Assembly: GCF_044324785.1 (NCBI RefSeq)
Contig: NZ_CP172127.1
Source of the DNA: Escherichia coli
GTDB taxonomy: Bacteria > Pseudomonadota > Gammaproteobacteria > Enterobacterales > Enterobacteriaceae
Reading direction: 5' to 3' (one strand)
DNA: 64,000 nt
The notes beneath the pieces are model-generated. The model had not been told where the DNA came from. It ran no database searches and saw only the letters and a program-made list of their open reading frames with translations. Shown here in pieces: positions 3,951 through 52,130 of the stretch; within the stretch, counting starts at the first letter, position 1, and the number at the start of each line of letters is the position of its first letter. The translations under genes and the position numbers were made by a program.

Positions 3951-4876
<926 letters not shown>

Positions 4877-4927
4877 AGTTCCTCCAGATGGATCGGGTTA
4901 TGAATGCATAAATCTTATCATAATCAT

Positions 4928-6160: not shown

Positions 6161-6196
6161 TCATGACTCCATCAATCGAACGCTGCCGCGGCGTAA

Positions 6197-7183
6197 CTAG
6201 TTGCCAGAAGCCAGCGAGGTTAGTTGCGCAAGCAGTTTCGCTGGTTCATCACCTGAAAGCTGTGCGTCTACAGGCAAATACCACCAATTTTCTTCTGCAA
6301 AGGCCCGGCATTTCACCGCATCTTTTTCAGTCATTACCAGCGTTTGCCCGGCGCTTACCAACGCGCTGACATCCGCATGGTTCAAAGACTGATGATCGGC
6401 CAGCGGTATACATTTTTCCGGTTGTACGCCGCACATCTTCAGCGTGGCAAAAAAGCGCGGCGGATGACCAATCCCTGCCATCGCCACCACATGTTCAAGC
6501 TGAGCAACGTCACAACGCGTACCGGTACGTAAATTCACCGCCTGACCCGGCAGCAGATGCATGGGGATTTCACCGCTGCGGGGGACACCACCGTTGACAA
6601 TTACCGCATCAACCGACTTTAAGCGCCCCGCTCGCTCACGCATTGGCCCCGCCGGCAACCACCAGCCATTGCCAAAGCGACGCACACCATCAACAACGAC
6701 AATTTCCACATCACGCGCCAGACGGTAATGCTGTAAACCGTCGTCGGTTACGATGATCTGCACATCAGGGTGTTGCGCCAGAATGGCTTTTACCGCATCA
6801 GAACGCACGGGAGAAACCGCAACAGGCGCATCAGTGCGTTGATAAATCAACACAGGTTCATCACCCGCCTGTGCTGTGGTGGTATCTGCCGACAATAACA
6901 GCGGATAAGATTCAGCCTTACCACCATATCCCCGCGATACGACCCCCACGCGAATACCGCGCTGTTGCAGCTGTTCCACCAGCCAGACAACGACCGGGGT
7001 TTTTCCGTTGCCGCCTGCGGTGAGATTACCAACCACGACAACCGGTACGGGGGCACGCCAGGCGCGCTTCAGTTTTAGTTTATAGCAAAGACGGATCGCG
7101 CCACTCACCAGGCCATACAACCAGGAGAGTGGCAGCAAGAGCCGCCACAAAGGGGATTCACCAGACCAGATTTTTTCGATCAT
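6197..7183 (-). CDS. lpxK: Tetraacyldisaccharide 4'-kinase
   Basis: 328 aa; P-loop [12 protein letters not shown]; 4-bp overlap with msbA stop. Confidence 0.95.
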
Positions 7184-25208: not shown

Positions 25209-25264
25209 AACATCATGTGCAGGCTGAATTCCGACCTGCCACCCCTTCCTTTAGTAGTAAAAAG

Positions 25265-25300
25265 TAAATCAGCGTTGAGAACATGCTCGACGCTGATTTA
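25265..25300. terminator. Bidirectional hairpin between the convergent pflA and bcsC-like genes
   Basis: TAAATCAGCG-N16-CGCTGATTTA inverted repeat. Confidence 0.55.
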
Positions 25301-25342
25301 CTGGATTTAATTTCCGAGTTTTAACCTTCTGATTCTACCTCA

Positions 25343-28300
25343 TTACCAGTCGGCGTAAGGTATCAGCGGCTGCGGCGGTAAATCCATGTCGCCCTGCCAT
25401 CCGGCGGCGGAATACCGCACGTAGAGCAGGAAATGGCTTGGCGCATAATCTTTCGCCTGCTGGATATCAATCGCCGTGCCGACAAACCAGTTGGACGTGA
25501 CGCGACGCTCAAGTAACGCCCGCGCCGTGTAGCCAAAGCCCTGACTGCTGCCGCCGTCGTTGGTCTGACTGGCGGCATCCTCTTTCCAGTCCGTCGGGAT
25601 CAGGTTCATCAGCGGATAACGCGGCATGGTTTTGGTGCGCGAATGCGACCACGAGCCAGACGCACCCAGCTCCCACGACCAGTTTTCCGTCCGCTCCCGC
25701 CACATCACCGGTATGGCAAACGACAGGTATTCCTGCGGGCTGTAGTAACCGCCCTGACCAAGTGAGTAGCCACTCAGGTCTTTGTCGTAATGCCAGATCA
25801 TATTGTTAAGACCAATGGTCACACGGCGATTATTCTGGTTGATGATCTTATAGTAATAGCCCGTCATCCAGCGCACGCGCCAGTTATCTTCGACATTTTT
25901 ACCGGTTAACTGGTCACCGCTAAGCGATGCCCAGACGCCGTTTGCTTCACCTTTATCGTAGCTCAGGCTTAGCCCCACGCCGTCGGCACGCACGCCGCCC
26001 CATTTTTTCCCGGTATTGCTCGGGGAGTCTTTTTGCCCGCCAAAGGCCAGCAAAGAACTGGAGATGGGCCGACGGTGGGCGTTAACGGTGTAACCCAGCG
26101 GCCCGATATCATCGCTGTAACTGATGCCGCCGACCACATCCACCACGTTGAAGCCCATCGGCGTGGTGCCGATATCCCAGCTCCAGACGTCATTTCGCCA
26201 GCCGACCGCCACGCTGGCACCGGAATCCGACTGGCTGCGGTTGCCGCTACAGTCCTGTAATGTACAGGTGCCCCAGTTGTCATCCCATTTGCCATCGGCA
26301 TTAGTGGAGAAACTGCCGACGTTCATATTGACGAAATCACTGCGAAAGAACATCCGCCCGTCAGAGTACGGCGCATCCACCTGCAACATGGTGGTGTGCG
26401 CTTTCAGATCGGAGTAACCACCGGTGCCGCTCGAACCCCAGTAATCGTGCTCGAGGGTGACGTTAAGATCCTGCTGGCGATAGAGGTCCGCTGCATCGCT
26501 GCGCACGCCGCGTTTCAGCCAGTCATCTTTCTCGTCGTTACGGGTCAGCCGGGTAAAGGTGTCGTTATCCTGCGGACGCGTCGTGGTCACACCGGATGCG
26601 ACCATCGCGTCTTTGTAGGTTTCCAGCGCCTGCGTTGGATCGCCCGCCTGCGCTTCAAACTTCGCACCGTCGCGCAGCACCATCGCGCTTTCCATCGACG
26701 GTGGCTGAGATTTTGCCTGCGGGATCAACTTATTAAACGTCTGCTGCGCCGCTGCGGTATCGCCAAGCTGCGCCTGCGCCAGCGCCACGCGCCGCTGAGT
26801 GTTCAGAGAGGCGTTATCAGTGGCGGGCAGTTTCGCCAGCTGGCTACGTGCCGCCGCTTTGTCACCGGCAGCAATATCCACTTCCGTCAGACCAAGAATG
26901 GCATCGGCGTTAGTTGGCTCCCGCGTCAGGACATTCTGATATGCAGCGCGAGCGGCGGTGTAATCACGTCGTTGTTGCGCCCAGTCAGCCAGCGTGAGGT
27001 CAATACGCGAGGAAGGCGGTTGCTGGCGCAGCATCGCTTCCGCTTCTGCCTCTTTGCCGCTTTCTCGCAGGCGATTAGCGGTTTCCAACACCTGATCGCT
27101 TTGCAGTCGATTAACCAGCTCCTGAATATTGCTGCTCCACTGCGCGCGCGGCAGGCTGTTGATATGCGCCAGCGCCGCTCTGTCCTGGTCATGACCAGAG
27201 AGATACAGCCCGTAAGCGTAAACCTGCTCCGGGTCGTTCGGCTTCTGCTGCGCCAGATTGCGCATTAACGTATCGGCCTGGCTGCGTTGTCCGGCCTGCC
27301 AGAGATCCTGTGAAAGTCGGTAAGTAATCCATACACTGCCGGGGTCCAGCGCCAGTCGCTGGCGCTGAAGTGCTGCTGCCTGCGCCCATTTGCCCTGTTT
27401 TTCCAGCGCTTCGGCCTGCTGTGACAAACGGTCATTTTGCAGGCTGCGTTCGATATCATCAATGCTACGCCGCTGACTGGCAGAGAGCGAGGCGATAAAC
27501 GCTTCAGCCTTTTCTGGCGATTGCTGGCGGTATATATTCGCCAGCCCGCGCACGGCGTTAGTGTTGCCGCTGTCCATACGCAAGGTCTGCTGATAATAAC
27601 GTTCGGCGGCGGGATAATCTTTTCGCGCCATCGCCACATCGCCCAGCCCCAGCACTGCATAGCTGTCGGTGTTATCGACATTACGCGCCTGCTGGAACAG
27701 GCGTTCTGCCCGGTCAGGATTATTGGCTTTCAGCGCAGCATCGCCCTGCTGGATCGCCAGCCAGTAGCGGTTTACTTTCAGGAGACTGTTCCATTTGTCG
27801 TTGTTGCTGCTGTGCGGATCCAGGGCGAGGGCTTTTTCCAGATTCGCCACCGCATTGGCGCGATCGCCTTTCTGAGAATACGCCTGGCCCAGCGCTCCAA
27901 ATATGGCACCAGAGTCAGGATTATCAATATTAAGTATTTTCAACTGACGAATCGCTTCGTTGCGACGGGAGGCAATTTGCGTCATTGCCCCCCAGTATTC
28001 CAGCGCCATTTCGATATCTGGCGGTGCACCGTTAAATAGCTTGTCGTAACTGTCGATAGCCTCTTTATGTCGCCCGGAGATAGCTTGTAAGCGTGCCATT
28101 TGCAGTGCCTGACGCCCCTCAGGCGAAGAAAGTCGCATGGCCGTGCGCGATGCTTTATATATTTTTGAATCAGGAGCGAGCAGGGAAAGTCTGGCAAGTT
28201 GTTTTTGCGCGCCTTCAATATCTCCCTTACGCAGCAGATAGCGAAAACGCGCCGCAACGACATCTGGATTATCAGGTTCCGCCAATTCAAGACGATAAAG

Positions 28301-28450
28301 CGACTGTTCGACCAGATCTTCACGATGAATGTCTTCGCCTAACCGAATCTGCGCCATTAACAGCTTGTGTGCAGTTGGTGTGGCTTTCGCCATCGACATT
28401 ACCGCCAAACCAAGGGATATTGTGAGTAAATTTAGGGTGAATTTGTACAT
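25343..28450 (-). CDS. BcsC-like exopolysaccharide export protein: N-terminal TPR repeats plus C-terminal outer-membrane beta-barrel
   Basis: 1035 aa; N-terminal signal peptide; long TPR-like repeat region; C-terminus rich in alternating aromatic/glycine strands and ending in W. Visibly more GC-rich than the genes upstream of it in the cluster. Confidence 0.8.
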   Translation of the reverse strand: MYKFTLNLLTISLGLAVMSMAKATPTAHKLLMAQIRLGEDIHREDLVEQSLYRLELAEPDNPDVVAARFRYLLRKGDIEGAQKQLARLSLLAPDSKIYKASRTAMRLSSPEGRQALQMARLQAISGRHKEAIDSYDKLFNGAPPDIEMALEYWGAMTQIASRRNEAIRQLKILNIDNPDSGAIFGALGQAYSQKGDRANAVANLEKALALDPHSSNNDKWNSLLKVNRYWLAIQQGDAALKANNPDRAERLFQQARNVDNTDSYAVLGLGDVAMARKDYPAAERYYQQTLRMDSGNTNAVRGLANIYRQQSPEKAEAFIASLSASQRRSIDDIERSLQNDRLSQQAEALEKQGKWAQAAALQRQRLALDPGSVWITYRLSQDLWQAGQRSQADTLMRNLAQQKPNDPEQVYAYGLYLSGHDQDRAALAHINSLPRAQWSSNIQELVNRLQSDQVLETANRLRESGKEAEAEAMLRQQPPSSRIDLTLADWAQQRRDYTAARAAYQNVLTREPTNADAILGLTEVDIAAGDKAAARSQLAKLPATDNASLNTQRRVALAQAQLGDTAAAQQTFNKLIPQAKSQPPSMESAMVLRDGAKFEAQAGDPTQALETYKDAMVASGVTTTRPQDNDTFTRLTRNDEKDDWLKRGVRSDAADLYRQQDLNVTLEHDYWGSSGTGGYSDLKAHTTMLQVDAPYSDGRMFFRSDFVNMNVGSFSTNADGKWDDNWGTCTLQDCSGNRSQSDSGASVAVGWRNDVWSWDIGTTPMGFNVVDVVGGISYSDDIGPLGYTVNAHRRPISSSLLAFGGQKDSPSNTGKKWGGVRADGVGLSLSYDKGEANGVWASLSGDQLTGKNVEDNWRVRWMTGYYYKIINQNNRRVTIGLNNMIWHYDKDLSGYSLGQGGYYSPQEYLSFAIPVMWRERTENWSWELGASGSWSHSRTKTMPRYPLMNLIPTDWKEDAASQTNDGGSSQGFGYTARALLERRVTSNWFVGTAIDIQQAKDYAPSHFLLYVRYSAAGWQGDMDLPPQPLIPYADW

Positions 28451-28562
28451 GCCTGCCTCAATCAGGTGTTAACTCACTTTTTATTAAAAACAGAACGGGC
28501 GCAGCTCCCTGCCTGTATAAAGTCAGGACAGAATGGAGCCGCAAAATAGAAATGATGATGAA

Positions 28563-29166
28563 TTACTGTTGATGAGGGTTCAGACGACGGCGACTAATGT
28601 TACGTAACAGACTCCATACTACCCACGCCAATAGCACCACACTGAGAGTTGCCAGCACTGCCAGTAGAATGGGATGTCTGGCTAACACATATTGCACTCG
28701 TTCAATCCAGGGGAGATGCCCAACGTAATAAGTATCTCCAACTCGTAAACTATTGATGCCAGATTCACGAATAACCGCGACTGAACCAAAAATATTGCCG
28801 CGTTTTGTACTATTAATTAACGCATTGTTGAGTAGCGTATCTCCGCGTGATCCCTCGGACATTAAAGCAATTACGCTGCGTTGGGTATGATATGGAGACT
28901 GAAAACCAACTATCGCCGCCATTGGCAATGGAGAATTTATAGTTGTTTGTATTTCAGGTTTTTGATCGTCGTTATCTGTCATAATTTTGGCGTAATCAGA
29001 GTGTCGTATTGGGCTTTTTACCCAACTTGTTGTTGCCTCAATGAGCAGATTAATTTGCTGATTGTCTGCAAATTCTTGCGGAAGTCTTCCTATTAACAGG
29101 ATATCTGAATCCTTGCCCTGGACAGAACCTATATCATCAGTAATTGTCAGATTAATTGCCGGAGAT
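28563..29166 (-). pseudogene. BcsB-like subunit, 3' fragment, separated from its 5' part by IS2
   Basis: Frame is open (no stops, checked codon by codon) from the IS2 junction at 29166 down to the stop at 28563; C-terminal TM anchor HPILLAVLATLSVVLLAWVVW...RRR typical of BcsB. In frame with the 5' fragment once IS2 and one GAGAT copy are removed. Confidence 0.8.
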
Positions 29167-29177
29167 TGGATTTGCCC

Positions 29178-30083
29178 CTATATTTCCAGACACCTGTTAT
29201 CACTTAACCCATTACTGGCCTGCTGCCGCAGATATTCCCGTGGCGAGCGATAACCCAGTGCACTATGCGGATGCCATTCGTTATAATGCTCGAACGCCTC
29301 TGCAAGGTTCTTTGCTGCCGTTAACCCGTCTGGTTTAGGCATGATACTGATGTAGTCACGCTTTATCGTTTTCACGAAGCTCTCTGCTATGCCGTTACTC
29401 TCCGGACTCCGCACCGCCGTGTTCTTCGGTTCAAGCCCCAACATCCGGGCAAACTGCCGTGTTTCATTAGCCCGGTAGCATGAACCATTATCCGTCAGCC
29501 ACTCTACTGGAGACGCCGGAAGCTCGTTGCCGAAGCGGCGTTCCACCGCTCCCAGCATTACGTCCTGTACTGTTTCACTGTCGAAGCCGCCCGTAGTGAC
29601 TGCCCAGTGCAGTGCCTCACGGTCACAGCAGTCCAGCGCGAACGTGACTCGCAGTTTTTCTCCGTTATCACAGCGGAACTCGAACCCGTCAGAGCACCAT
29701 CGTTGATTGCTTTCTTTCACGGCCACTTTGCCAGTATGTGCCCGTTTCGATGGCGGTACAGCGGTTTTTCGCTCAAGCAACAGCGCATTCTGGCGCATGA
29801 TCCGGTAAACACGTTTGGCATTGATCGCAGGCATACCATCAAGTTCGGCCTGTCTGCGAAGCAGCGCCCATACCCGACGATAACCATACGTGGGCAGCTC
29901 TCCGATAACATGGTGTATACGGAGAAGCACATCCGTATCATCTGAGTGACGGCTGCGGCGACCATCTTTCCAGTCATCGGTTCGTCTGAGAATTACGTGC
30001 AACTGCGCACGCGACACCCGGAGACAACGGCTGACTAAGCTTACTCCCCATCCCCGGGCAATAAGGGCGCGTGCGCTATCCAC
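29178..30083 (-). CDS. insD: IS2 transposase OrfB (InsD; DDE integrase domain)
   Basis: 301-aa [33 protein letters not shown]...; overlaps orfA near a T6/A6G slippery run at about 30084-30090. Confidence 0.9.
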
Positions 30084-30406
30084 TTTTTTGCACGCCCGTA
30101 TTCAACGGCTTCTTTAAGGAGTTCATTTTCCATCGTTTTTTTGCCGAGCAGGCGCTGGAGTTCTTTAATCTGCTTCATGGCAGCAGCAAGTTCAGAGGCA
30201 GGAACGACCTGCTCTCCTGCGGCCACAGCAGTAAGACTTCCCTCCTGGTATTGCTTGCGCCAGAGAAATAACTGGCTGGCTGCCACACCGTGTTGCCGGG
30301 CAACAAGGGAGACCGTCATTCCCGGTTCAAAACTCTGCTGAACAATAGCGATCTTTTCCTGTGTAGTACGCCGTCTGCGTTTCTCCGGTCCTAAGACATC
30401 AATCAT
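30041..30406 (-). CDS. insC: IS2 OrfA (InsC; helix-turn-helix)
   Basis: [40 protein letters not shown]... Confidence 0.9.
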
Positions 30407-30497
30407 CTGCTCTCCAATGACTAGTCTAAAAACTAGTATTAAGACTATCACTTATTTAAGTGATATTGGTTGTCTGGAGATTCAGGGGGCCAGTCTA

Positions 30498-32199
30498 GAG
30501 ATCCAGTTTGAGCACCAATCAGTCCAAGGGTATTTAATAATGTTTCAACTTGCGTTGTGCCAGGATTTTCAGGCATAACCACAACCGTTTCTGATAGATC
30601 GGCCATGCGGCTAAATGGAAAGCCTGAGCTGGCAAAAGCGCGTAAATCTGGCATTGCGATAAAGTGATGGTACTTTGAAAAATCGATAGTGGAATCATCT
30701 GCAATAACCGCATGATTTTTTAGCGACCGGGAAATAATACAGCTATCGGCATCAGAGCGCGGCATTGTATTAACGTACTCAAAATTAAATCGCAATTGAT
30801 TAAGCGCCCCTAACGTCAGCGCAGGAATGTTAATTTCATTATTACCATCCAACAATTCTTGCAATAACGGTAAACGTAACAATAACCTATCAGTAGCAGA
30901 TTGCGGACTCAGCCGGAAAGATTCAAGGTACTGGTTATTAAGGCTGACATCCATGCGTGAACCACCTATCGTTGGCGTGGTATAACGATAGTTAATCTTC
31001 ATCTCACCCCCACGATTACGCAATAGAAAGAGATCAGGTGGCAAATTAAATGAAACATTAATTGCCGCAGACTCCAGGGCACTTGCCTGTAACTGCCCTT
31101 CATAATTTTTAAGCTCTGCGAAAGTTACAGGACGATCAGTGCGTATCCAGTTTGGCGCATCATAAGGTTTACGCGGCAGTAACGGCTTCACGTCATTTAC
31201 GACCACGCTATCGCCGCGAAATAATATATTTCCCTGTGCAAGGCCTTTTGCCGCCTGTAATAAATCTTTATCATCGCGGCCCAAAAGTACCAGCAATTTG
31301 ACAAAGGGATTTTGTGGATGACTGATCATTTTAATAACAGGCGCATTCACCAACGGATGCTCGCGCAGAAAGTCTGGGCGTCTATTGTTCGTGGCAAAGA
31401 CTACTGCATTACTTTCCGGTAACTGGTTATAGAAAACCGGAAATCGGTGACCACGCCAGCCAGATTGCGAACCAAACCACGAAGCGACAATAGCTGATAC
31501 CTGCTGCAAACCAGTCCCAGGAGTACCGGCAAAAACCATCGGCAATGTATTAGGGCGGTTATCTCGCGGATCAAAGAACGGTACAGGAAGATATGAAAGA
31601 TCATTTTTCAAATTGAGTCTCTGAACTACCAGTTCAAGTTCACTGGTACGTCCAATATCAAGCCACAAATTGCCGCTGGTCGGGTTTTCGCAGGCGCTCT
31701 GGTAGTGACTAATTAATTCTAGGCGCAAGCGATTAAAATCCGAAAAATACAATGGGTTAAGAGTTATTTCCGCCAGCGTTTTCTTCCCCAGTTGTTCTTT
31801 GGTAATCGGCAATACCTCCATCAACTCGTCATTAAGATAGACCTTAAGCTGTGACTGGACCGGGATCAGCGACGGTGATGGAGTGTATTCAAGTTTTAGT
31901 TTCGCTTCTGACACTATTTCATCGCTACGCATACCAAACTCAATTTGCCCCTGTGGGTTAACTCCATTCAGGACTATGTTTCCTGGCGCTGGTGCGATTT
32001 GTGTAAATGGGAGTTTAAAATAGCGAGATGGCTCTTTCACATAAGCAGAGATATTTTCTTTCGGGATAGCGGGTAATACTCCGACTGAGGAAGGCTTATG
32101 AATTACTGTATCTGTAGCCGATGCTGTATTTGCCTGGTAAAAACATAGTAACCCCAAGCCAATTATTGCAGCACTTAATCTCAAAAATTTTCTTTCCAT
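30498..32199 (-). pseudogene. BcsB-like periplasmic subunit, 5' fragment, truncated by the IS2 insertion
   Basis: ORF 30448..32220 reads into IS2; probable start MERKFLRLSAAIIGLGLLCFYQANTASA (signal peptide); BcsB-like blocks such as EFGMRSDE and LKVYLNDELMEVLP. Confidence 0.8.
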
Positions 32200-32258
32200 T
32201 TTAAAAAATTCAACAACCATAATAAATACAAATAATATATTTAATTAGCAATCAGAAA

Positions 32259-34379
32259 TTAGAACTGACTTTTAGAACTGCCTTTCAGTGTCCGGAGAAT
32301 ATAAAAAACCATATTGCAATAACCTTTCAGAGAGATAAAACATATTTCAATAAAACTCTTTAAAATATTGTCTCGTTTAATTTTATCATTCCACTCTTGC
32401 CATAGTGAATCACGAGAAAACGTTGCTCTGACATAATTAACATTTTGTTCATGACTCATTGGCATAATCTTCAGACCAATTTTATTATTGTAGGCATGAA
32501 CTATTTCTACCGGTATATCACACTTTCCGTTACTATCATCCAGATAAAGAGACAACCGCTGTGTTTTAACAATATTTTTTACGTCGGAGATATTATCAAG
32601 GATAACGCCTAATCCTCCTTCGGAAAAATCAAGAACAGAACAAGGATAGCTCCGTCCATCTTCCAGTTGTATAACGCCCTTGAAAGAAACATCAATACGG
32701 GGAGAAAAACGCACCTGCTTTTGTTCAATAGAAACAGCCAAAGTTGCGCCAATAATAATTGTATTATAAAACAGCCAAATCAAACAAAAAAAATTCAGGA
32801 TGGCGATATGCCCTTGCAAACTATAAACATTAACAATACCTATTATCAGTCCAATTACATTTAAAATGGCAAAAATAAGATAGGGGTAGGAAATTCGCCA
32901 GTCAACAAACTTATTTTTTATCAGCCCTCCTTTGGCCGTAACGTTGAAACGCCCTTTTGCTGGTGCAAGTAAAGCTACAAGAGTTGGTAGCGTAATATAC
33001 CAAGCCAGAACCATTTCATAAATCTCATTCCAGAATGAATGTCTGTATTTACCCTGTACTCTTGAATTAGTTAAAATAATAACAAATAAATAAGGTAAAA
33101 CATAAGACATAATATCTGCAACCGATGCTTCGATCAGGTTGACCGAAAAGAAAATAGGACATAACGGTGCGAACAAGAAAATCAGTCGTGGCACACCTGA
33201 TAAAAAATGCATCATGCTGCTGAGATAGCAAAGGCGCTGTGATAATGTCAGCCCCTTGCCCAATAATGGATTGTCAATACGCAAGATTTGAATCATGCCT
33301 CGAGCCCATCGAATCCGTTGTCCAATATGAGCAGACAATGTTTCTGTGGCTAGCCCGGCAGCCAGAGGATAGCGAAGATATGCAGAGCTATAACCTGCAC
33401 GATGCAAGCGTAACGACGTATGCGCATCTTCAGTTACTGTTTCGACTGCAATGCCTCCAACCTCATCCAGAGCAGATCTACGGATGATTGCACATGAACC
33501 ACAAAAAAATGAAGCATTCCATGTATCCGTACCATTCTGGATTAACCCATAAAAAAGGTGTCCTTCATTTGGCTTTTGCCGAAACTGCCCCAAATTTCGC
33601 TCAAAAGGATCGGGGGAAAAAAAATGATGTGGTGTTTGCAACATCGATAATTTTTTATCTGCAATAAACCAGCCCATCGTTTTCTTTAAAAAAGATACCG
33701 AGGGTATATGATCGCAATCGAAAATAGCAACAAATTCGCCATTAGCTATTTTAAGCGCATTATTTATATTTCCGGCCTTAGCATGTTCATGTGTTTCTCT
33801 TGCGACATAGTAAATTCCTGACTCGTTCGCAAATTTCCTGAACTCATCCCTGGCGCCATCATCAAGGATCCAGATATGTAATTTATCCTTTGGCCAGTCT
33901 AAAGCCAACGCACCATAAACTGTATTCTTCACGACTGTAAAAGGTTCGTTATATGTGGGTATTAATATATCTACGATGGGCCATTCTTCTTTATTCTCTG
34001 GTAAAGGTATACTTTCTCTGTTCAGCGGGAAGCAAACCTGAAAGTAACCAAGTAATAAAACAAACCAAGCATACGTTTCAGCAGTTAATAACGTGACTGA
34101 AAATAAGCAGTCTGGAAATTCATTCAGGATGACTGAAGAAGAGTACCGCCACCATAGATATCGGGATGAGATGAGTATTCCAACACCCATTAATATCAGG
34201 GTAATCATCCTTCCCTTGAACAAATTAAGGAAAATGACAGCGATGCAAATAATAATTGAAAATAATATTTGTTGATAAAATCCAAGTGGCTGCTCAACAA
34301 TTGATAAAAAGACAAAACATAGCAATATAGCAACAACCAAAAGGATTTTGTTTAATATTTCTTTATTTTTTAAGATCAT
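32259..34379 (-). CDS. BcsA-type processive family-2 glycosyltransferase (cellulose-synthase-like) with C-terminal PilZ c-di-GMP receptor domain
   Basis: 706 aa; DDG, DCD, TED and QRIRW catalytic motifs; FFCGS; gating-loop FNVTAK; PilZ RFSPR (RxxxR) and DFSEGG (DxSxxG); multiple TM helices. Very AT-rich DNA. Confidence 0.85.
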   Translation of the reverse strand: MILKNKEILNKILLVVAILLCFVFLSIVEQPLGFYQQILFSIIICIAVIFLNLFKGRMITLILMGVGILISSRYLWWRYSSSVILNEFPDCLFSVTLLTAETYAWFVLLLGYFQVCFPLNRESIPLPENKEEWPIVDILIPTYNEPFTVVKNTVYGALALDWPKDKLHIWILDDGARDEFRKFANESGIYYVARETHEHAKAGNINNALKIANGEFVAIFDCDHIPSVSFLKKTMGWFIADKKLSMLQTPHHFFSPDPFERNLGQFRQKPNEGHLFYGLIQNGTDTWNASFFCGSCAIIRRSALDEVGGIAVETVTEDAHTSLRLHRAGYSSAYLRYPLAAGLATETLSAHIGQRIRWARGMIQILRIDNPLLGKGLTLSQRLCYLSSMMHFLSGVPRLIFLFAPLCPIFFSVNLIEASVADIMSYVLPYLFVIILTNSRVQGKYRHSFWNEIYEMVLAWYITLPTLVALLAPAKGRFNVTAKGGLIKNKFVDWRISYPYLIFAILNVIGLIIGIVNVYSLQGHIAILNFFCLIWLFYNTIIIGATLAVSIEQKQVRFSPRIDVSFKGVIQLEDGRSYPCSVLDFSEGGLGVILDNISDVKNIVKTQRLSLYLDDSNGKCDIPVEIVHAYNNKIGLKIMPMSHEQNVNYVRATFSRDSLWQEWNDKIKRDNILKSFIEICFISLKGYCNMVFYILRTLKGSSKSQF

Positions 34380-34463
34380 TATACTTAGCGATTCATTAAC
34401 AATACAGCTTGAATAGTGTGATTTTTATAAACATTGATGACCAATGCCATGCAAATTTAAATA

Positions 34464-35795
34464 TCAACACCACGTTATCTGTGCTCTGCCATTTTGCTTA
34501 CTTTTGTATAACCGTTCATCTGCCAGCAATTTCAACCGTTCAATGTTATTCATGCACTCATCTGTACTGGCAACTCCTATGCTGCAACTACAATTTAACC
34601 CACCGATTGCGAAATGAACAACTCTGTGCAAAATTCTTGATAGTTTATTTTTATCTTTCTCATAATAAATAATAGCAAACTCATCACCGCCAAACCGGTA
34701 TATTTCCCCTTCACGACGGGGTAACTCATCTTTAATAAGGTTAACAAGTTTGATGAGTACTTCATCACCAAACAGATGGCCAAACTTATCATTAATGGTT
34801 TTAAATTTATCCACATCAAATAGACACAGGTAGCCAAAATTCTTGCTCAGCATCTTGATTTCCTTATCAAAACTCCGACGACCAGAAGCCCGAGTTAATG
34901 CATCACAAGTGCCAAAGTCATATATCTCTCGAATTGCATTAATCTCTTCCGTATTAAAGAATAGATTTTCTCCACATAAATCATATTGATGATTCGATAA
35001 TATAGATTCTTTTTCCAATCTACCCTTATTTATAATATTTCGTAGTAATTTAATATAATAAACATACAGTATAACTGCAGATATTGCCGATGCAAAAACG
35101 AATAGCATACATATATAGAGATATTTACTTTTTTTATAGGCAACAATAAACATCATTTCTGGAAGGTAAGAATACGACAGAGTGATAGCTGACATCTCAA
35201 ATACAGCATCATTTATCAAAAAATCATCACCTGTGATTTTCTTTTCATTATCATTAATATCATAAAATGAGATATAGATATCTTCTCGTTCCCCTGACTG
35301 ATTTCTAATCAAAGATAAATAACGTTCAGGATCTACCACTGATATCAAAATTGTTCGTTTGGCAATGGGATGAGCATAATAAACATAGTACTTATCTTTT
35401 AAACCAATAACACCTCTCTCAAATTCGTTCATTACTCGAATAGAGGAAACTATGTCGCCACAAAAATCATCCCCTTTCGTTGTAACTTTGATACATTTAC
35501 CATCGCTAATAATATAAGGACCGAGATCATACAAATATCCAGGATTTTCATAGCCAGCAAAGCTATTGCGTATTTTTTTTACCAATTCTTCTGGGGCAAT
35601 ATCTAGTTCATAAAATATATCATTAGATACTGAGCGGCGATACTCAGAAACATTAGCTATTGCAAGCCCACTATCTACAATAGATACCTTCACCGAATTA
35701 ATGCGGCCCTTAACATAAATGGTGTATAAATAACAAGTTACTACAGCGACGAACAAAAAACAGATTACTGCCGCCTTTTTCTTATATTTGAACAT
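34464..35795 (-). CDS. Membrane-bound diguanylate cyclase (two TM helices flanking a periplasmic sensor, then GGDEF)
   Basis: 443 aa; intact RFGGDEF active-site motif; no RxxD I-site five residues upstream; about 200-aa periplasmic region containing a Cys pair. Confidence 0.8.
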   Translation of the reverse strand: MFKYKKKAAVICFLFVAVVTCYLYTIYVKGRINSVKVSIVDSGLAIANVSEYRRSVSNDIFYELDIAPEELVKKIRNSFAGYENPGYLYDLGPYIISDGKCIKVTTKGDDFCGDIVSSIRVMNEFERGVIGLKDKYYVYYAHPIAKRTILISVVDPERYLSLIRNQSGEREDIYISFYDINDNEKKITGDDFLINDAVFEMSAITLSYSYLPEMMFIVAYKKSKYLYICMLFVFASAISAVILYVYYIKLLRNIINKGRLEKESILSNHQYDLCGENLFFNTEEINAIREIYDFGTCDALTRASGRRSFDKEIKMLSKNFGYLCLFDVDKFKTINDKFGHLFGDEVLIKLVNLIKDELPRREGEIYRFGGDEFAIIYYEKDKNKLSRILHRVVHFAIGGLNCSCSIGVASTDECMNNIERLKLLADERLYKSKQNGRAQITWC

Positions 35796-35799
35796 TGCT

Positions 35800-38148
35800 T
35801 TATTTTCTTTTTTTCGGTTTGCTGTCTATATGCCATTCTGAAAACGGTAGCGGTTTCTGGTATAAGTATCCCTGAACATGAGAGAATCCTAATTTTTGCA
35901 ATTCTCTGGCCTGACTTTCAGTTTCAACACCTTCAGCTATTACCGGCATATTTTCTTCACGAGCAAGGCTGGATATAAAGTACACAATTTTGTTAGTTTC
36001 GTTGAAAATACCAGAGGTAAACTCTGAATCAATTTTAATACTATCAGGTCTTACTTTATAAAGTTTTTTCAGGTCAGCTAATCCACTACCGAAATCATCA
36101 AGAGAAATCTTGATACCGTTTTCTTTTAAAATGTTTATATTATTGTAAAAGCTATCATTTATATCTTTTACTGCTGACTCGGTGATCTCCAGACAGATTT
36201 GTTCAGCATTTACATCAAATGCATTAATTAAAGTAAGAACACGAGTGTGGAAGTCAATTTCATTTAATTGCCATGGAGAAACATTGATATGCAGGAGAAA
36301 ATCGTTAGCAACCTCATATTCACGGCTAAAGGCACCAAATTCGCTAATAGCCGTTTCGAGAATAAAATCACCCAGTTCTTTAATTAATCCTATTTCTTCA
36401 GCAACAGGTACAAAAATTGATGGCGGTATTGCCCCATTTTCGACGGATAACCAGCGGCATAACGCCTCAGCACCGACAACCCTATTATTATCCATATCAA
36501 CAATCGGTTGATATACTAAATAAAGTTCACTACTCAAAATCGCTTTTTTTATATTTCCTGCCACCCAGACCTTTTGATCAAGTTCATGAACTTTGATATC
36601 ATCATAAAACATAAATTCAGATTCTTTATTTTCCCGCATAGCTGTTAATGCCAGTTTCAACTTCCCTTCATAAATCGAAACATTTTCCCCTGAAAAAGTT
36701 TCACAAATGGCAATCTTATGAATATAAATATTTCTTATGCAAAATATATGTTCAGGGAAGTTTAAAACAGATAATCTTTCGATGAACTCTTCGCAGTGCG
36801 TGTGGCACAGCAACAAGTATGTTTCAGTTGAGAATTTTACGATATCACAATATTTTGAATATTTTTGTGAAATCTTCGATTTTATATCATTAACAATTTC
36901 ATAAAATTTCTGACTTCCATATATCGCCTCAACAAACTCTAATCCATAGATGCAAAGCATACCAACTGCCAAATAGGTTTTATTATTAGTTTCAATAACA
37001 GCCTTATTAATATAGAAACAACTTCCTTGTTCATAGGACACAAGATTAAGTAAACGGTCCATACGCTCCTTGTATTTATCACTGATATTATTAATGATTT
37101 TTTTGAGTTCAACAATTTCGCTACTATCATTTTGCACAATATCAATTGTGTCATTGCGATATACTGAGTTAGCTAATTTTTTCAGATGTTCTATTAGTTT
37201 ACTGGATTCTCGTTTAATTTTTTTTGTTATATTTTCAACGATATACCATAATAAACAGAAACAAACCAAGCCACATAAAAACATCAATGTAAAATATTTA
37301 TTGATGTTTGCATCTTCTGCTTTTTGATAGTAAAAGTAATGGAATCTGACATCAGGAAGCCTGGGGAGTGAGATAATATTGTCTGTATAGTTTCCACTAT
37401 TATTACTTATGTTATAACTTCCCGATGACTCACGGACAATAAGATGTAACATTGATTTTTCATTACCTACCATTATCCTTTTATTTTGTTCCATGAATAG
37501 AATATCAGCATCACTACCTAGTTTATTTAAAAAATTACTGAAATATTTTTCATCAAGATCCAGATGCATTAACTTCAGAGCAAATGAATCTTTTTCTTCT
37601 TCGGATGGCCGTAGTGAAAACGAAAAACATTTTTTTCCGGCAATACCATAACAATTATACCATGGTGACCATTTTGAATAAGTCCCTGCCGGTAATTTAT
37701 TCCAGGGGCGTGATTCCGGGTTAAAGTAGTTATCGCTAATATTACCATCGTCCCCAATAAAAGGTTTGCCGGCTTCTGATTTCCCCAGGAATTTTACCTC
37801 ACCATCCTCAGTTCGAATAAAGCTAAGATAGTTTCCATTATTGAGCATTATCCCTACTAAATTAACAGCGTCTATTTTTTTCATGCGATGAAGGACTGCT
37901 CGCTTTATTTCACCTTCATCATTTAACAGATAAATTGCATCTTTTAATGCATCAGCCTCTTTTTCAACTTTAGAAAAAAAATTATTCAAATTGTTATTGA
38001 TGAGTATAAGGTTAATCCGTGAAGAGTTTTCTGCTATTTTTTTATGGAAGTCAATTGCGGTAATAAATGAAAAGACAATATAGACAGTAACAGCTAATAT
38101 AACCGCAGTGTTAAATCTTGAGTTTAATTTTTCGGTAATGCTATACAT
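35800..38148 (-). CDS. Membrane-bound c-di-GMP phosphodiesterase (periplasmic sensor, degenerate GGDEF-like linker, EAL)
   Basis: 782 aa; EAL-domain residues present (GAEALCRW, QICLEITES, ISLDDFGSG, IKIDSEF, AEGVETE, VQGYLYQKP); no GGDEF motif in the middle domain; two TM helices flank a roughly 250-aa periplasmic region. Confidence 0.8.
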   Translation of the reverse strand: MYSITEKLNSRFNTAVILAVTVYIVFSFITAIDFHKKIAENSSRINLILINNNLNNFFSKVEKEADALKDAIYLLNDEGEIKRAVLHRMKKIDAVNLVGIMLNNGNYLSFIRTEDGEVKFLGKSEAGKPFIGDDGNISDNYFNPESRPWNKLPAGTYSKWSPWYNCYGIAGKKCFSFSLRPSEEEKDSFALKLMHLDLDEKYFSNFLNKLGSDADILFMEQNKRIMVGNEKSMLHLIVRESSGSYNISNNSGNYTDNIISLPRLPDVRFHYFYYQKAEDANINKYFTLMFLCGLVCFCLLWYIVENITKKIKRESSKLIEHLKKLANSVYRNDTIDIVQNDSSEIVELKKIINNISDKYKERMDRLLNLVSYEQGSCFYINKAVIETNNKTYLAVGMLCIYGLEFVEAIYGSQKFYEIVNDIKSKISQKYSKYCDIVKFSTETYLLLCHTHCEEFIERLSVLNFPEHIFCIRNIYIHKIAICETFSGENVSIYEGKLKLALTAMRENKESEFMFYDDIKVHELDQKVWVAGNIKKAILSSELYLVYQPIVDMDNNRVVGAEALCRWLSVENGAIPPSIFVPVAEEIGLIKELGDFILETAISEFGAFSREYEVANDFLLHINVSPWQLNEIDFHTRVLTLINAFDVNAEQICLEITESAVKDINDSFYNNINILKENGIKISLDDFGSGLADLKKLYKVRPDSIKIDSEFTSGIFNETNKIVYFISSLAREENMPVIAEGVETESQARELQKLGFSHVQGYLYQKPLPFSEWHIDSKPKKRK

Positions 38149-39247
38149 ACTGGTGTTCTGACTAAAATGTTATCAATAGCTTTAATATAAGATCGTATAA
38201 AGTTCTGTATATTAGCCGATGTTACCCTCCTCTTTATGACTTTCTTAATTTCATTATCCCCATATAACAAATATGTCATGATGAGAAGATTAATTTTTTC
38301 TTAATTTCCACAAGTGATTATCATGCTTCTTATTTTAACCAGAACAATATTGTTATATGTAACACTCATCTTTGTATCTTTCACCCACGCTACCGCCTTT
38401 CGTTAATCATTCAACGAAATAATTTAGATATGAAAAAATTACCCTGTAACAACACAACTAGCACATCCTGCCGAGTTGTGACATCTACTCTATAATTATC
38501 CAAAAGAGGTATTAGTATCTATTGTCAGTAATCCATTCTGTTTATTTATCTTATTTAAGACATGTGTAATACGACTCTCTTAGCCCAAATATATTAATCA
38601 GTAACTTTAAAGTAAGATTTAGTCAGAAAGTGATCGTGAAAATTTCACTGCCCAGGCTGTAATTTGTCCATCAACCTAACAGATAAATATTTTCAGGAAC
38701 ACACGTTCGATAAAACAATAGATGCAACATTAGAGCACTATTTTATTTTTAAAACAAAAGACTGTGAACTACACCAGGCATGAGAAGATTCTGTCGTGAG
38801 ATGATTTTTTCCAGATTAAAACACTATAAAATATAACTTTTACAGAATATTACGCCAGTAAATCAATATGCCATCTGCATATTCAAACAATAACTGCAAT
38901 CATTCTCAGCAAATTTAACCATAATTAGCAACGTGCAAATTCATTGATGCAGATCAAAAATCCGAGTTTACATTACCAATCTTTGTTGAAAATTTAGCCG
39001 TAAAAATCATGTTATTACTATACGCAAGAGTTTACTCCAGAGCCCAAAATAATAACTTGCAAAATAACCAATAATTAAAACTATCACCATATCTAAAAAT
39101 AAAGGTCTCCGATAACTAAAATTCGTATTATCACGGTAGCGTTGATATTCTTCCATCTCTTAAGAAAAACTTAACTTTTACCCTATCAGGCCTGATCTAA
39201 TTTTAAACTATTTGATATCATAGCCCCGGCGAACCGGGGCATGATGA

Positions 39248-40678
39248 CTATTTTGTATTCGCTTTACGTGCAAGCAGCGGGAATATCAGCCCCAGTCCAA
39301 CGAGGACAAATGGCGTAGTTATGTTCAGTGCCAATTGGAATGTCCACTCTGCAGTGAAGGCTTCCATTTTAGGGAAAATTCCTGTCAGGCAGGCAAAAGC
39401 GGTAAAGGCAAAACACCAAATTCCGACGGTCATTGCCAGCGGCTTATTACGAATAAAGACATATTCCGGCTTATATTTCTGCGCCAGGCGAACAACTGCA
39501 ATAAATGCAACAAATACCCATAAATAACGCAGCGGCATCACTACCGAGTTAAGATTCAACAGCCATTTATAGAGATTGTTCATATCACCAATGCCGAGAG
39601 TCGGCAGCATTATCAGGATCGCCACCAGCACCAGGGTCAGAAAATAGCCATTAACGGGCGTACCAGAAGCGTTGGTACGACATAAACTGGCTGGAATATA
39701 TTTGCTGTCAGCATCGCCTAATAACACTTTAAGCGGCGCATCAATCGAGAATACCAGCGCAGCTACTTGTCCCAGGGTATTCGCAATGGCATAAATCACC
39801 ATTAAAGTATTACCCATGTTGTAATACTCGCCCAGCTTCTGAAAGGCGTAATACTGACCGTTAGTCATTAAGTCATCCGGGATATTACGCGAGTCAAACA
39901 TCATCCCCATCGCCAGTGAGCCCAGAATGGCACAAACCGCAACCATCACCGCCAGACATAACATCCCTTTTGGAAATTCTTTTCCTGGGTTGCGCGTTTG
40001 ATTAACGTAAGGAGAAATCTTCTCTGCTCCGCCAACCGCGAAAACCAGCATTGAAATAGTGGTAATGTAGGTAAAGTCGATATGAGGAATGAACGTTTCC
40101 CAGGTAATGTTTGTGGTCGCAATATGCACTTCAGTAATCGCAGGCGCGGTTACCGCCATCGCCACATACAGGAGCGACATAACAAACATCGCAATCCCTG
40201 CCACAGAACCGACGATTTTCAGCGATTTCATACCGCGTGAAGCAACCCACATAAAGAAGATAAACAGCACCAGCGTTAACCCCTGTAACGCTACGACTGA
40301 ATATTCTTTGATTAGCGAACCGTCGCCTTTCATCGCCCAACCGAGCGCAATCAGTATTGCCTGGGGTTTTTGTGCCAGATAGGGAATATGCACTACCCAG
40401 TAGGTCCACGCGGCGAGGTAAGCCAGTCCGGGTCCCATCGTGTGTTTAATCCAGGTACTGACCCCGCCCTTCCCATCTTTGAAGGTCGAGCCTAACTGAC
40501 CAACAATTAGCGCATAAGGTGTGAAATAGAGCGCAAAGATAAACACCCACGAAAAAACAACCACCAGCCCCTGGTTGGCGTAGTTATTAACAACGTTGCC
40601 AAAACCCCAGACAGTGATAAAAGACATCAGCGCAATGTTGTACCATCGCAGCTGTTTTTCCTGAACATTCCCAGCCAT
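39248..40678 (-). CDS. ycaM: APC-family amino-acid/polyamine transporter YcaM
   Basis: ORF 39248..40870; likely start at the internal MAGNVQEKQLRWYNIALMSF...; polytopic membrane protein. Confidence 0.85.
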   Translation of the reverse strand: MAGNVQEKQLRWYNIALMSFITVWGFGNVVNNYANQGLVVVFSWVFIFALYFTPYALIVGQLGSTFKDGKGGVSTWIKHTMGPGLAYLAAWTYWVVHIPYLAQKPQAILIALGWAMKGDGSLIKEYSVVALQGLTLVLFIFFMWVASRGMKSLKIVGSVAGIAMFVMSLLYVAMAVTAPAITEVHIATTNITWETFIPHIDFTYITTISMLVFAVGGAEKISPYVNQTRNPGKEFPKGMLCLAVMVAVCAILGSLAMGMMFDSRNIPDDLMTNGQYYAFQKLGEYYNMGNTLMVIYAIANTLGQVAALVFSIDAPLKVLLGDADSKYIPASLCRTNASGTPVNGYFLTLVLVAILIMLPTLGIGDMNNLYKWLLNLNSVVMPLRYLWVFVAFIAVVRLAQKYKPEYVFIRNKPLAMTVGIWCFAFTAFACLTGIFPKMEAFTAEWTFQLALNITTPFVLVGLGLIFPLLARKANTK

Positions 40679-49924: not shown

Positions 49925-50536
49925 CTACTTACGTTGATCATCTACCGTGACGCCTTGCGGCGGGGTGAAGGTAAATTTCGCTGCATCCACAGCCCCATTT
50001 TGCTGGGATTTCAGTTGATAACTGCTGCGCTGATCGTCCTGCTCCACCGCGCTAAACTGATGGATTGTGCCATCACGTCCCACGTTAATGGTGAACTGCT
50101 TCAGATTGCCATTGCTGGCTTTCGGCGTCAGGACAAAGTCATCGCCATTCTGTTTGATATTGTACTGCTGCCAGTCGCTGGACTGGTTGCGGGCAATCAG
50201 CATAAACGGCGTATTACCGGTGGCATCTTTCAGCCAGGTTGCCGTAGCTTGCTCAACGAACGGGTTATAGAACCACAGTGTTTTACCGTCAGAAACCAGA
50301 ATGCTTTCATCAGGTTGAGTCATATGCCAGTTGAATAAGTTTGGACGTTTCACCCACAGATCGCCCTGACCTTCCTGCACCGCCGCGCCGCTACCGTCAG
50401 TCACTTTTTGTGTGAAGCTGGCGTGGAAGCTGCTGACTTTATCCAGGCGGCTTTTCAGATCGCTTGCGGCATCAGCCCAAACGCTGCTTGCTACTAAGCT
50501 TGAGAGTAATGCACAGGTGATGGCAATTTTTTTCAT
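49925..50536 (-). CDS. lolA: Outer-membrane lipoprotein carrier protein LolA
   Basis: [45 protein letters not shown]... Confidence 0.95.
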
Positions 50537-50666
50537 CATTATTCCTCAAATTACGTCACTCCCGACCGGGAGTTCCCTCTACTCTCTATTCCAGGCTAAT
50601 AATCAGCTTGAGGAAAGAAGAAAATACTGAATTTTCAGTTGATAGAGTGCCGGATGCAACGCTACC

Positions 50667-51421
<755 letters not shown>

Positions 51422-51525
51422 ATCAGCATACTTGTCCTTAGCCTTCTGCAGTGACAGCTGGTAGTACAGCGTGCTTCTGGCCAGCCCTGCAGCCTTTAAC
51501 AGGTCAGACTGGCAGTGTCCGCACC

Positions 51526-52047
51526 TCAGGCTCCGGATGACTTTCGTTTTTTCTCCAGCTCCTGGCGCTTTTTTTCCAGGAGATGCTCCTGCATGGCTTT
51601 CAGATATGCATTTTCTGCGCGAAGATAACGCAGCTCATTCTTCATCTCTTCCGGCGTCATGTTTGCCTCGTTTTCATGGGTATCATCAGAACGGGTCATG
51701 CTTTTCTCCTTCCTGCGCCTGATAAAGGCCTCATTACCAGATTTGCGGTAGCCTTTTATCCAGTTTTTAACCGTGTTGTGGCTGGGAATGTTAAACCGGG
51801 CAGCTACCCGGGGTAGAGACTCAGAATGCCCGAGAGCATAAAGAACCACGCAAAGTTTATCTTCAGGAGAATAGCTACGCTTGTGTCTGCAATCCAGTGC
51901 CCGAGGACCGTGAAGAAGAAAAAGATTAATCCAGTGTGAGAGGCTGGTGTGAGAAAGTTGAAAGAGTTTTGCCGTAGAAATGATGCCTGCATGACCAGCC
52001 AGGTAATGATTTACAGCGGCAAGTTTTACTTCAAATGAATGTTTCAT
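51526..52047 (-). CDS. insJ: IS150 OrfA (InsJ; helix-turn-helix)
   Basis: MKHSFEVKLAAVNHYLAGHAGIISTAKLFQLSHTSLSHWINLF... Confidence 0.85.
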   Translation of the reverse strand: MKHSFEVKLAAVNHYLAGHAGIISTAKLFQLSHTSLSHWINLFLLHGPRALDCRHKRSYSPEDKLCVVLYALGHSESLPRVAARFNIPSHNTVKNWIKGYRKSGNEAFIRRRKEKSMTRSDDTHENEANMTPEEMKNELRYLRAENAYLKAMQEHLLEKKRQELEKKRKSSGA

Positions 52048-52130
52048 AAACTGCACCTTCAGATGTCAGATTATGTCCAACATTTGGGGTGCAGTTCATA
52101 CCGCGCCTTATCCGGCCTACGATGCATTAA

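Follow-up and report, generated by a model that had tools for sequence, protein, structure and literature searches.

A recent IS2 insertion interrupts the bcsB gene of an accessory cellulose synthase island in Escherichia coli

Introduction

Does an IS2 element that lies inside a bcsB-like gene record one recent transposition into an otherwise intact gene, or does the split have another origin? The question is raised by the window, by which we mean the whole stretch of 64,000 nt of Escherichia coli DNA analysed here, in which the element separates two minus-strand open reading frames (ORFs) of 590 and 139 codons. We find it highly probable that the locus arose when an intact IS2 (IS3 family) transposed once, and recently, into codon 575 of an accessory bcsB gene. 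The insertion is real, recent, and routine, and most likely inactivates the gene.

The interrupted gene and its reconstruction

The bcsB gene is placed directly downstream of bcsA (38 bp, same strand), with bcsC in turn downstream of bcsB, and it is present in two pieces:

30503 to 32220, minus strand: bcsB 5' fragment, which together with the GAGAT copy at 30498-30502 encodes native residues 1-574
28563 to 29161, minus strand: bcsB 3' fragment, from the rest of codon 575 to residue 773 and the stop codon, holding the C-terminal membrane anchor

The upstream 590-codon ORF (30448-32220) reads into IS2 for 16 foreign codons up to a stop at 30448, while the 139-codon ORF (28563-28982) is the in-frame tail of the 3' fragment. 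As the original prediction had claimed, excision of 29167-30502 (1336 bp) rejoins the two ORFs into a single open frame without any frameshift, and the intervening stretch 28983-29166 is free of stop codons in this frame. The reconstructed protein is of the BcsB type as foreseen, but at 773 aa, or 766 aa when counted from the start annotated in relatives, it is somewhat shorter than the roughly 780 aa that had been proposed.

Both fragments indeed belong to one BcsB homologue. Residues 70-674 of the repaired protein match the Pfam BcsB family PF03170 over model positions 6-606 of 606 (E=1.1e-208), its identity to K-12 BcsB (b3532) is 64% over the full length, and residues 43-771 align from end to end with the BcsB chains of solved E. 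coli structures (e.g., 6YG8, 7LBY, and 9FMT). Kyte-Doolittle windows above 1.6 are confined to residues 12-30 and 732-763, revealing both the hydrophobic N-terminal leader and the C-terminal transmembrane segment (at about residues 738-761, with RNISRRR after the anchor) that had been expected. The layout of leader, periplasmic domains, and C-terminal transmembrane anchor is shared with core E. coli BcsB (b3532; 6YG8, 7LBY, 7L2Z, 9FMT), from which the accessory bcsB differs by its locus and by being interrupted. An intact product of this gene would be predicted to support BcsA catalysis and cellulose production.

The IS2 element and its target-site duplication

The inserted element and its flanks comprise the following features:

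29167 to 30497, minus strand: IS2, 1331 bp, gapless 95.7% identity over 1331/1331 bp to annotated K-12 IS2A
30041 to 30406, minus strand: IS2 orfA (InsC), 121 aa, intact, 121/121 residues as in K-12 InsC1
29178 to 30083, minus strand: IS2 orfB (InsD), 301 codons, intact, 290/301 residues (96%) as in K-12 InsD1
29162 to 29166: target-site duplication GAGAT, IRR-side copy, read from the sequence
30498 to 30502: target-site duplication GAGAT, IRL-side copy, read from the sequence

Borders and repeats are those that had been proposed: a full-length IS2 sits between the two GAGAT copies, its transposase genes running the same way as bcsB. The terminal sequences are TGGATTTGCCCC... at one end and ...GGGGGCCAGTCTA at the other, and the imperfect terminal inverted repeats (TAGACTGGCCCCC...CCAGACA and TGGATTTGCCCC...CCAGACA) match the ends of K-12 IS2A in the gapless full-length alignment, though an ungapped comparison of the two repeats with each other needs a 1-nt offset. 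The sole IS2 end in the 64,000-nt window belongs to this element, with 0 matches expected by chance. An A6G frameshift motif, GCAAAAAAGTGG (AAAAAAG), lies within the overlap of orfA and orfB, the latter being in the -1 frame. All hallmarks of IS2 are hence present—a length of about 1331 bp, identity of at least 90-95%, two overlapping ORFs, the slippery motif, a 5-bp target duplication, and terminal repeats. The copy is separated from K-12 IS2A by 57 substitutions and shows 100% identity to a further copy in E. coli; together with the intact ORFs, this identity to another genomic copy suggests that the element is transposition-competent.

A close parallel is the yaiX::IS2A pseudogene of K-12 MG1655, in which the same element (1331 bp, 95.7% nucleotide identity, orfA/orfB, and A6G site) likewise divides a coding gene, whose two parts come back into one frame upon removal of the element and one repeat copy. 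The target duplications are 5 bp each, ATTAC at yaiX and GAGAT at bcsB. The two cases differ in the target gene and in the age of the bcsB insertion, which is very young, with 0 flanking SNPs compared to an empty-site relative.

The uninterrupted allele and independent support for the junction

An uninterrupted allele had been anticipated in related isolates and is widespread: residue for residue, the repaired protein equals P0001, annotated as BcsB of Escherichia coli and found on 189 public contigs. At the nucleotide level, the repaired 22,322 bp show 0 mismatches to strain L007 (GCA_958304815.1), which carries the empty site, with a 9-bp gap as the only other difference, and 1 mismatch to L009. 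Six related strains (N3 and L007-L011) have a single GAGAT at the uninterrupted site, so that the GAGAT pair of the window arose by duplication of the target site and does not match by chance. With this 5-bp duplication, an intact IS2, an empty site in relatives, and the exact common allele on excision, the proposal of a single recent transposition is well borne out. Two non-synonymous differences, V241A and L313F, distinguish the repaired bcsB from that of strain N3; we considered them as possible post-insertion decay and rejected this, as the version in the window is the common allele.

The IRR junction is also present in Logan contig SRR31073010_440 (L005), which comes from an independent short-read assembly and is seen in 2 samples; positions 27866-29194 of the window, 28 nt of IS2 included, are 100% identical to it. 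These independent data cover the IRR-side junction only. The 139-aa tail was retrieved from a protein collection by exact look-up, again on contig L005. No exact match to the truncated 590-aa and 583-aa ORFs was found in this collection, as would be expected if the gene is annotated as a pseudogene or if contigs break at IS2. Megablast of the whole interrupted locus did not find the interrupted arrangement in 5,426 complete E. coli genomes, and the exact 40-nt bcsB/IS2 junction had no match in the GTDB species-representative genomes, among which E. coli is represented by one genome only, leaving the latter scan uninformative. The intact allele stands on 189 contigs and the IS2 allele on 1 contig (2 samples).

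An accessory bcs island between pflA and ycaM

The interrupted gene is part of an island with the following features:

25209 to 39248: accessory bcs island (bcsC-bcsB::IS2-bcsA-GGDEF-EAL and a 1.1-kb AT-rich spacer), standing in place of K-12 ycaN-ycaK between pflA and ycaM
25343 to 28450, minus strand: island bcsC, 1035 aa, intact but chimeric by comparison to K-12 BcsC and by GC content
32259 to 34379, minus strand: accessory bcsA, 706 aa, intact, 0 differences from L007
34464 to 35795, minus strand: GAPES2-GGDEF (YliF-like) gene, 443 aa, Pfam domains as recorded for the L007 homologue
35800 to 38148, minus strand: CHASE9-EAL (YliE-like) gene, 782 aa, intact, Pfam domains CHASE9 and EAL

Homology to K-12 extends precisely up to the pflA stop (25208), then restarts at the ycaM stop (39249). 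The island is present in 9 of the 5,426 complete E. coli genomes, its gene order is alike in N3, 06-00048, E7-1N7, and L007-L011, and no bcsZ, bcsQ, bcsR, or bcsEFG is found nearby. An assignment of these bcs genes to the core operon was rejected based on their pflA/ycaM location and on identities of only 53-64% to core BcsA and BcsB. Judging from sequence and location, the bcsB gene studied here belongs to an accessory, horizontally acquired second bcs cluster and not to the core cellulose operon, which has a different genomic location and about which the window carries no information.

Accessory BcsA keeps the QRIRW motif and the PilZ motifs RFSPR and DFSEGG but lacks the N-terminal extension of about 150 aa found in core BcsA; its residues 14-700 align to K-12 BcsA 150-836 with 52.9% identity, and the core C-terminal tail (about 30 aa) is missing. 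These features closely resemble the accessory Escherichia chromosomal bcs2/bcs3 bcsABC clusters, a class described by Hosseinpourlamardi, Romling et al. (bioRxiv 10.1101/2025.05.09.653004, 2025 preprint). According to the available text of this preprint, those clusters are rare and Escherichia-restricted, carry bcsA-bcsB-bcsC at a non-core chromosomal site with adjoining YliF-like GAPES2-GGDEF and YliE-like CHASE9-EAL genes, and encode a BcsA without the N-terminus (about 150 aa) and C-terminus (about 30 aa) of BcsA1 but with catalytic and PilZ motifs kept. The same portions of the preprint present the function of type 2/3 clusters as predicted without demonstration and make no mention of the pflA/ycaM site, of IS2 disruption, or of a chimeric BcsC. 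Given the chromosomal location of our island and an identity of only 74.6% (nucleotides) between its bcsA and a plasmid bcsA, we would guess that it falls into class 3 of that scheme.

The original prediction had seen no secondary decay at the locus, which holds true for bcsB, bcsA, bcsC, and the EAL gene but not for the GGDEF gene, where a deletion of 9 bp between 35752 and 35753, private to the window and in frame, has removed YFL from the first transmembrane helix. The chimeric nature of bcsC is apparent from residues 165-1035, which are 96.9% identical to K-12 BcsC 287-1157, compared to only 36.5% identity in the N-terminal part (blastp, residues 1-477 vs 1-487), and from a GC content of 55-61% in the bcsC region vs 30-46% in the rest of the island. 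The 3' 2.5 kb of this gene, encoding the 871-residue C-terminal part, are core-derived. A separate IS1 insertion is found in the bcsB of another island lineage: in an approximately 85% island variant (E. coli SCU-172, MSB1_4I, and OZ547117), the same accessory gene of the same chromosomal island is IS-inactivated, yet by IS1, with a 9-bp duplication, and around codon 220 instead of 575.

Alternative explanations

An assembly artefact, in which a repeat-resolution error had put IS2 into a bcsB gene that is intact in the real genome, would fit with the frequent misassembly of repeats and with the presence of several IS2 copies in E. coli (at a median of 4 places per genome having any). It would also fit with the lack of the junction in the complete RefSeq E. 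coli genomes and in the GTDB species-representative genomes. However, the perfect 5-bp target-site duplication is a signature of real transposition and an independent Logan contig is 100% identical over the bcsB/IRR junction, and we regard such an artefact as very improbable. The V241A and L313F differences from strain N3 could also be taken to mean that bcsB was a decaying pseudogene before IS2 arrived, the insertion being old or secondary, but the residues in the window are those of the most widespread allele (P0001), 0 nucleotide differences separate it from L007 over 22.3 kb, and the IS2 is intact between two identical GAGAT copies. The identity to P0001 and to L007 effectively refutes prior decay, to which we assign almost no probability.

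Beyond a simple insertion, the event could be one of several selected ones by which a second, costly or interfering cellulose synthase is shut down, or IS2 could rewire expression of the downstream chimeric bcsC; we consider this unlikely. Selected silencing would fit with the two private lesions relative to the 0-SNP relative, both of which fall inside the island (the IS2 copy that splits bcsB and the loss of 9 bp from the GGDEF gene), with the independent IS1 insertion (9-bp duplication, around codon 220) that the 85% variant carries in its bcsB and that is seen in 3 of the 9 complete genomes with the island, with the split EAL gene of L010, and with the argument of the preprint (10.1101/2025.05.09.653004) that a second bcs operon is disfavoured at the population level. 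Yet these counts are tiny, the three IS1 genomes share one site and probably reflect one event, the loss of 9 bp keeps the GGDEF gene in frame and may do no harm, and intact alleles on 189 contigs face an IS2 allele on 1 contig (2 samples). Regarding bcsC rewiring, a promoter scan for a hybrid, outward-facing promoter at the IRR junction, from which the 3' bcsB fragment and bcsC might be read, gave no minus-strand match, and the 3 promoter-like matches of the region are all on the plus strand, compared to 3.0 expected from shuffled sequence. In a more elaborate version, accessory bcs clusters would, once acquired, disturb the core cellulose machinery and be silenced time and again for this reason, the interference arising from recombination with the core (as in the core-derived 871-residue part of BcsC) and IS2 being a selected relief of cross-talk between two synthase complexes. 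Examples of such repeated silencing would be IS2 here, IS1 in another lineage, the split EAL gene, and the in-frame cyclase deletion; this scenario strikes us as quite unlikely. The single, recent, and routine IS2 insertion remains our preferred explanation.

Predicted consequences of the insertion

Following from this insertion, the truncated product would consist of 574 native and 16 IS-encoded residues and lack the C-terminal 199 residues. The missing part includes the membrane anchor by which BcsB contacts BcsA and without which the synthase is not active. Omadjela and colleagues are said to have treated the role of the BcsB C-terminal helix in 2013 (PNAS). The preprint likewise states a role for this helix (10.1101/2025.05.09.653004). 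In addition, the 1.3-kb insertion probably lowers transcription of downstream bcsC. Given the loss of the C-terminal 199 residues and the probable effect on bcsC, the accessory synthase of the window strain is most likely non-functional, and this second cellulose synthase is better scored as such. An internal ATG at 28982 might conceivably allow a C-terminal BcsB fragment to be made, but no Shine-Dalgarno-like sequence was seen before it and the promoter scan gave nothing on the minus strand.

The insertion is a clean and datable case of an accessory biofilm gene being lost to an IS element, and it carries little weight in itself. Together, the window strain and GCA_958304815.1 form a natural knockout/wild-type pair with 0 SNPs over 22 kb that could be used for testing polymer production by accessory bcs clusters.

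An IS2 insertion splits an accessory bcsB gene

The plus strand across the insertion reads GCCG GAGAT / TGGATTTGCCCCTATATTTCCAGACA ... CTGGAGATTCAGGGGGCCAGTCTA / GAGAT CCAGTTT, and the element end sequence occurs only once in the window, with a chance expectation of 0.

Features at the insertion site (reading frames from the ORF table)
29162-29166 and 30498-30502: target-site repeat GAGAT, on both flanks of the element
29167-30497: IS2 element between the GAGAT copies, 1331 bp
30448-32220, minus strand: bcsB 5' ORF of 590 codons, reaching 16 codons into the element
28563-28982, minus strand: 139-codon ORF
30041-30451 and 29178-30083: IS reading frames

When 29167-30502 (IS2 plus one GAGAT) is deleted in silico and translation is started from 32220, a single open frame of 773 codons results that shares its stop codon with the 139-codon ORF. 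The original prediction was correct in all coordinates and frames, namely IS2 at 29167-30497, GAGAT on both sides, and excision rejoining both ORFs without any stop in between; the single protein that it had put at roughly 780 aa is 773 aa long (766 aa with the start used in the RefSeq annotation of relatives). The truncated and repaired products have 574 residues in common before the former continues with 16 IS-derived residues and a stop, which places the insertion within codon 575.

As proposed, the rejoined fragments form one BcsB: the repaired protein covers the entire Pfam BcsB model (PF03170, E=1.1e-208), has 64% full-length identity to K-12 BcsB, and aligns via residues 43-771 with 6YG8, 7LBY, 7L2Z, and 9FMT, which are solved BcsB chains of E. 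coli. Its hydropathy profile has two strongly hydrophobic segments only: MERKFLRLSAAIIGLGLLCFYQANTASA as N-terminal leader, and an anchor near the C-terminus (around residues 738-761) that is followed by RNISRRR, in agreement with the expected signal peptide and membrane anchor.

The element aligns without gaps over 1331 bp to the MG1655 feature "insertion sequence:IS2A" (95.7% identity), and its transposase genes are co-directional with bcsB. Compared with the K-12 proteins, InsC matches at 121/121 residues and InsD at 290/301; neither frame is interrupted, and the frameshift motif AAAAAAG has been retained. The element has at least one 100% identical counterpart elsewhere in E. coli, and 1,240 records carry an IS2 copy at least 99% identical. 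It is an intact, presumably active IS2 variant. Like it, K-12 IS2A splits a gene (yaiX) and has a 5-bp flanking repeat (ATTAC there); gene inactivation by IS2 with a 5-bp duplication is textbook knowledge.

The insertion is recent and apparently rare

The repaired protein is identical (exact identity re-checked) to a public protein named "BcsB [Escherichia coli]" that is found on 189 contigs, and all relatives compared have a single GAGAT at the site, confirming that uninterrupted alleles exist. Over 22,322 bp from ycaP to ycaD, the repaired window shows 0 mismatches to L007 (a contig of GCA_958304815.1) and 1 mismatch each to the empty-site relatives L009 and L010 (GCA_053151395.1). The bcsB of strain N3 differs from that of the window at 2 non-synonymous positions, at both of which the window has the common allele. 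Because the repaired gene equals the common allele and shows no mismatch to L007, bcsB was intact when it was hit and has not changed since. The E. coli substitution rate is around 1-2e-7 per site per year, and at this assumed rate the absence of differences over 22 kb would roughly cap the separation of the window and L007 at a few hundred years, though it could be far less, in line with the recent insertion that had been suggested.

A misassembly is argued against by the independent short-read Logan contig SRR31073010_440 (in 2 samples), which is 100% identical to window positions 27866-29194 and thereby crosses the junction into the IS2 right end by 28 nt. The allele bcsB::IS2 at codon 575 appears to be undescribed, and also rare: this one contig compares with 189 that encode the intact protein identical to the repaired one.

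The earlier view that the locus shows no secondary decay holds for bcsB itself as well as for bcsA, bcsC, and the EAL gene, these last three being full length, but not for the GGDEF gene. There, 9 bp are missing between 35752 and 35753, the sole remaining difference between L007 and the repaired window; this deletion is private to the window (absent from 6/6 relatives compared) and represents the loss of one unit from an imperfect tandem of 9 bp, TGTTTTTTG TATTTTTTG. It keeps the reading frame and takes YFL out of the first transmembrane helix in the GGDEF protein.

Proposed consequence of the insertion

The split gene would encode a secreted BcsB that lacks the last 199 residues and hence its membrane anchor. 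According to a recent preprint, the C-terminal transmembrane helix of BcsB touches BcsA, and BcsB is essential for catalytic activity (bioRxiv 10.1101/2025.05.09.653004). The insertion would also be expected to be polar on bcsC. Omadjela et al. reportedly held the same view of the role of BcsB for BcsA in 2013. Re-expression of the C-terminal BcsB fragment or of bcsC is not supported, because we saw nothing resembling a Shine-Dalgarno sequence ahead of the internal ATG at 28982, and a promoter scan gave no minus-strand hit at the bcsB/IS2 junction.

Setting and content of the accessory island

The interrupted gene is not the core bcsB, since it sits between pflA and ycaM-ycaD-ycaC-dmsCBA. Homology to K-12 breaks precisely at two stop codons, that of pflA (25208) and that of ycaM (39249), and the island in between (25209-39248; 14.0 kb, or 12.7 kb without IS2) replaces K-12 ycaN-ycaK (positions 4661-6340 of the K-12 locus L013).

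Genes of the island
bcsC: 25343-28450, 1035 aa
bcsB: split by IS2, 773 aa when repaired
bcsA: 706 aa, with QRIRW and the PilZ motifs RFSPR and DFSEGG
GAPES2-GGDEF protein gene: 34464-35795, minus strand
CHASE9-EAL protein gene

Such accessory bcs clusters were recently reported as a class in Escherichia, and the island matches the architecture of the chromosomal bcsABC types 2/3 with adjoining YliF-like and YliE-like genes (bioRxiv 10.1101/2025.05.09.653004). It is rare, being present in 9 of the 5,426 complete genomes of E. coli, with 1 at 99.9%, 1 at 95%, and 7 at around 85% identity. We noticed neither flanking repeats nor an integrase or tRNA, which suggests that the island entered by homologous recombination of its flanks rather than by site-specific integration. 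Between the EAL gene and ycaM lies a 1.1-kb stretch of around 31% GC (38149-39247) without any ORF of at least 150 aa; it is part of the island, conserved in relatives, and may serve the operon as a promoter or regulatory region.

In the island, bcsC has a chimeric structure. Exactly from the stop codon, the 3' 2,556 nt have 96.0% identity to K-12 core bcsC (96.9% at the protein level, residues 165-1035 against K-12 BcsC 287-1157), and the 5' ~0.5 kb has only ~71%. The GC content jumps in parallel, to 55-61% as against 30-46% elsewhere in the island. All 3 island lineages have this breakpoint in common, with 96%, 95%, and 88% identity to K-12 in their core-like parts. In E. coli S56, plasmid A joins bcsAB of a related foreign type to a full-length core-type bcsC and a bcsZ remnant (97.3% identity to K-12). 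No mention of this is made in the preprint text (bioRxiv 10.1101/2025.05.09.653004).

Other lesions and IS elements

In the same pflA-ycaM island, a bcsB variant of ~85% identity carries IS1 with a 9-bp duplication at around codon 220 in 3 complete genomes of this lineage (SCU-172, L004 9256-12354; MSB1_4I; OZ547117), an insertion independent of the IS2 event in the window; ycaM is annotated as frameshifted in SCU-172. The CHASE9-EAL gene of L010 is called in two pieces of 91 and 682 aa (4065-6412), and the BcsB of this relative is identical to the repaired one. These scattered lesions may point to repeated decay of the accessory cluster, but are too few to show selection. Outside the island, the intergenic region between lolA (49925-50539) and ftsK (52131-56237) holds an IS1397 of the IS3 family at ~50640-52070, which has two reading frames, and E. 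coli IAI39 has the same lolA-IS1397-ftsK arrangement at 99.2% identity.
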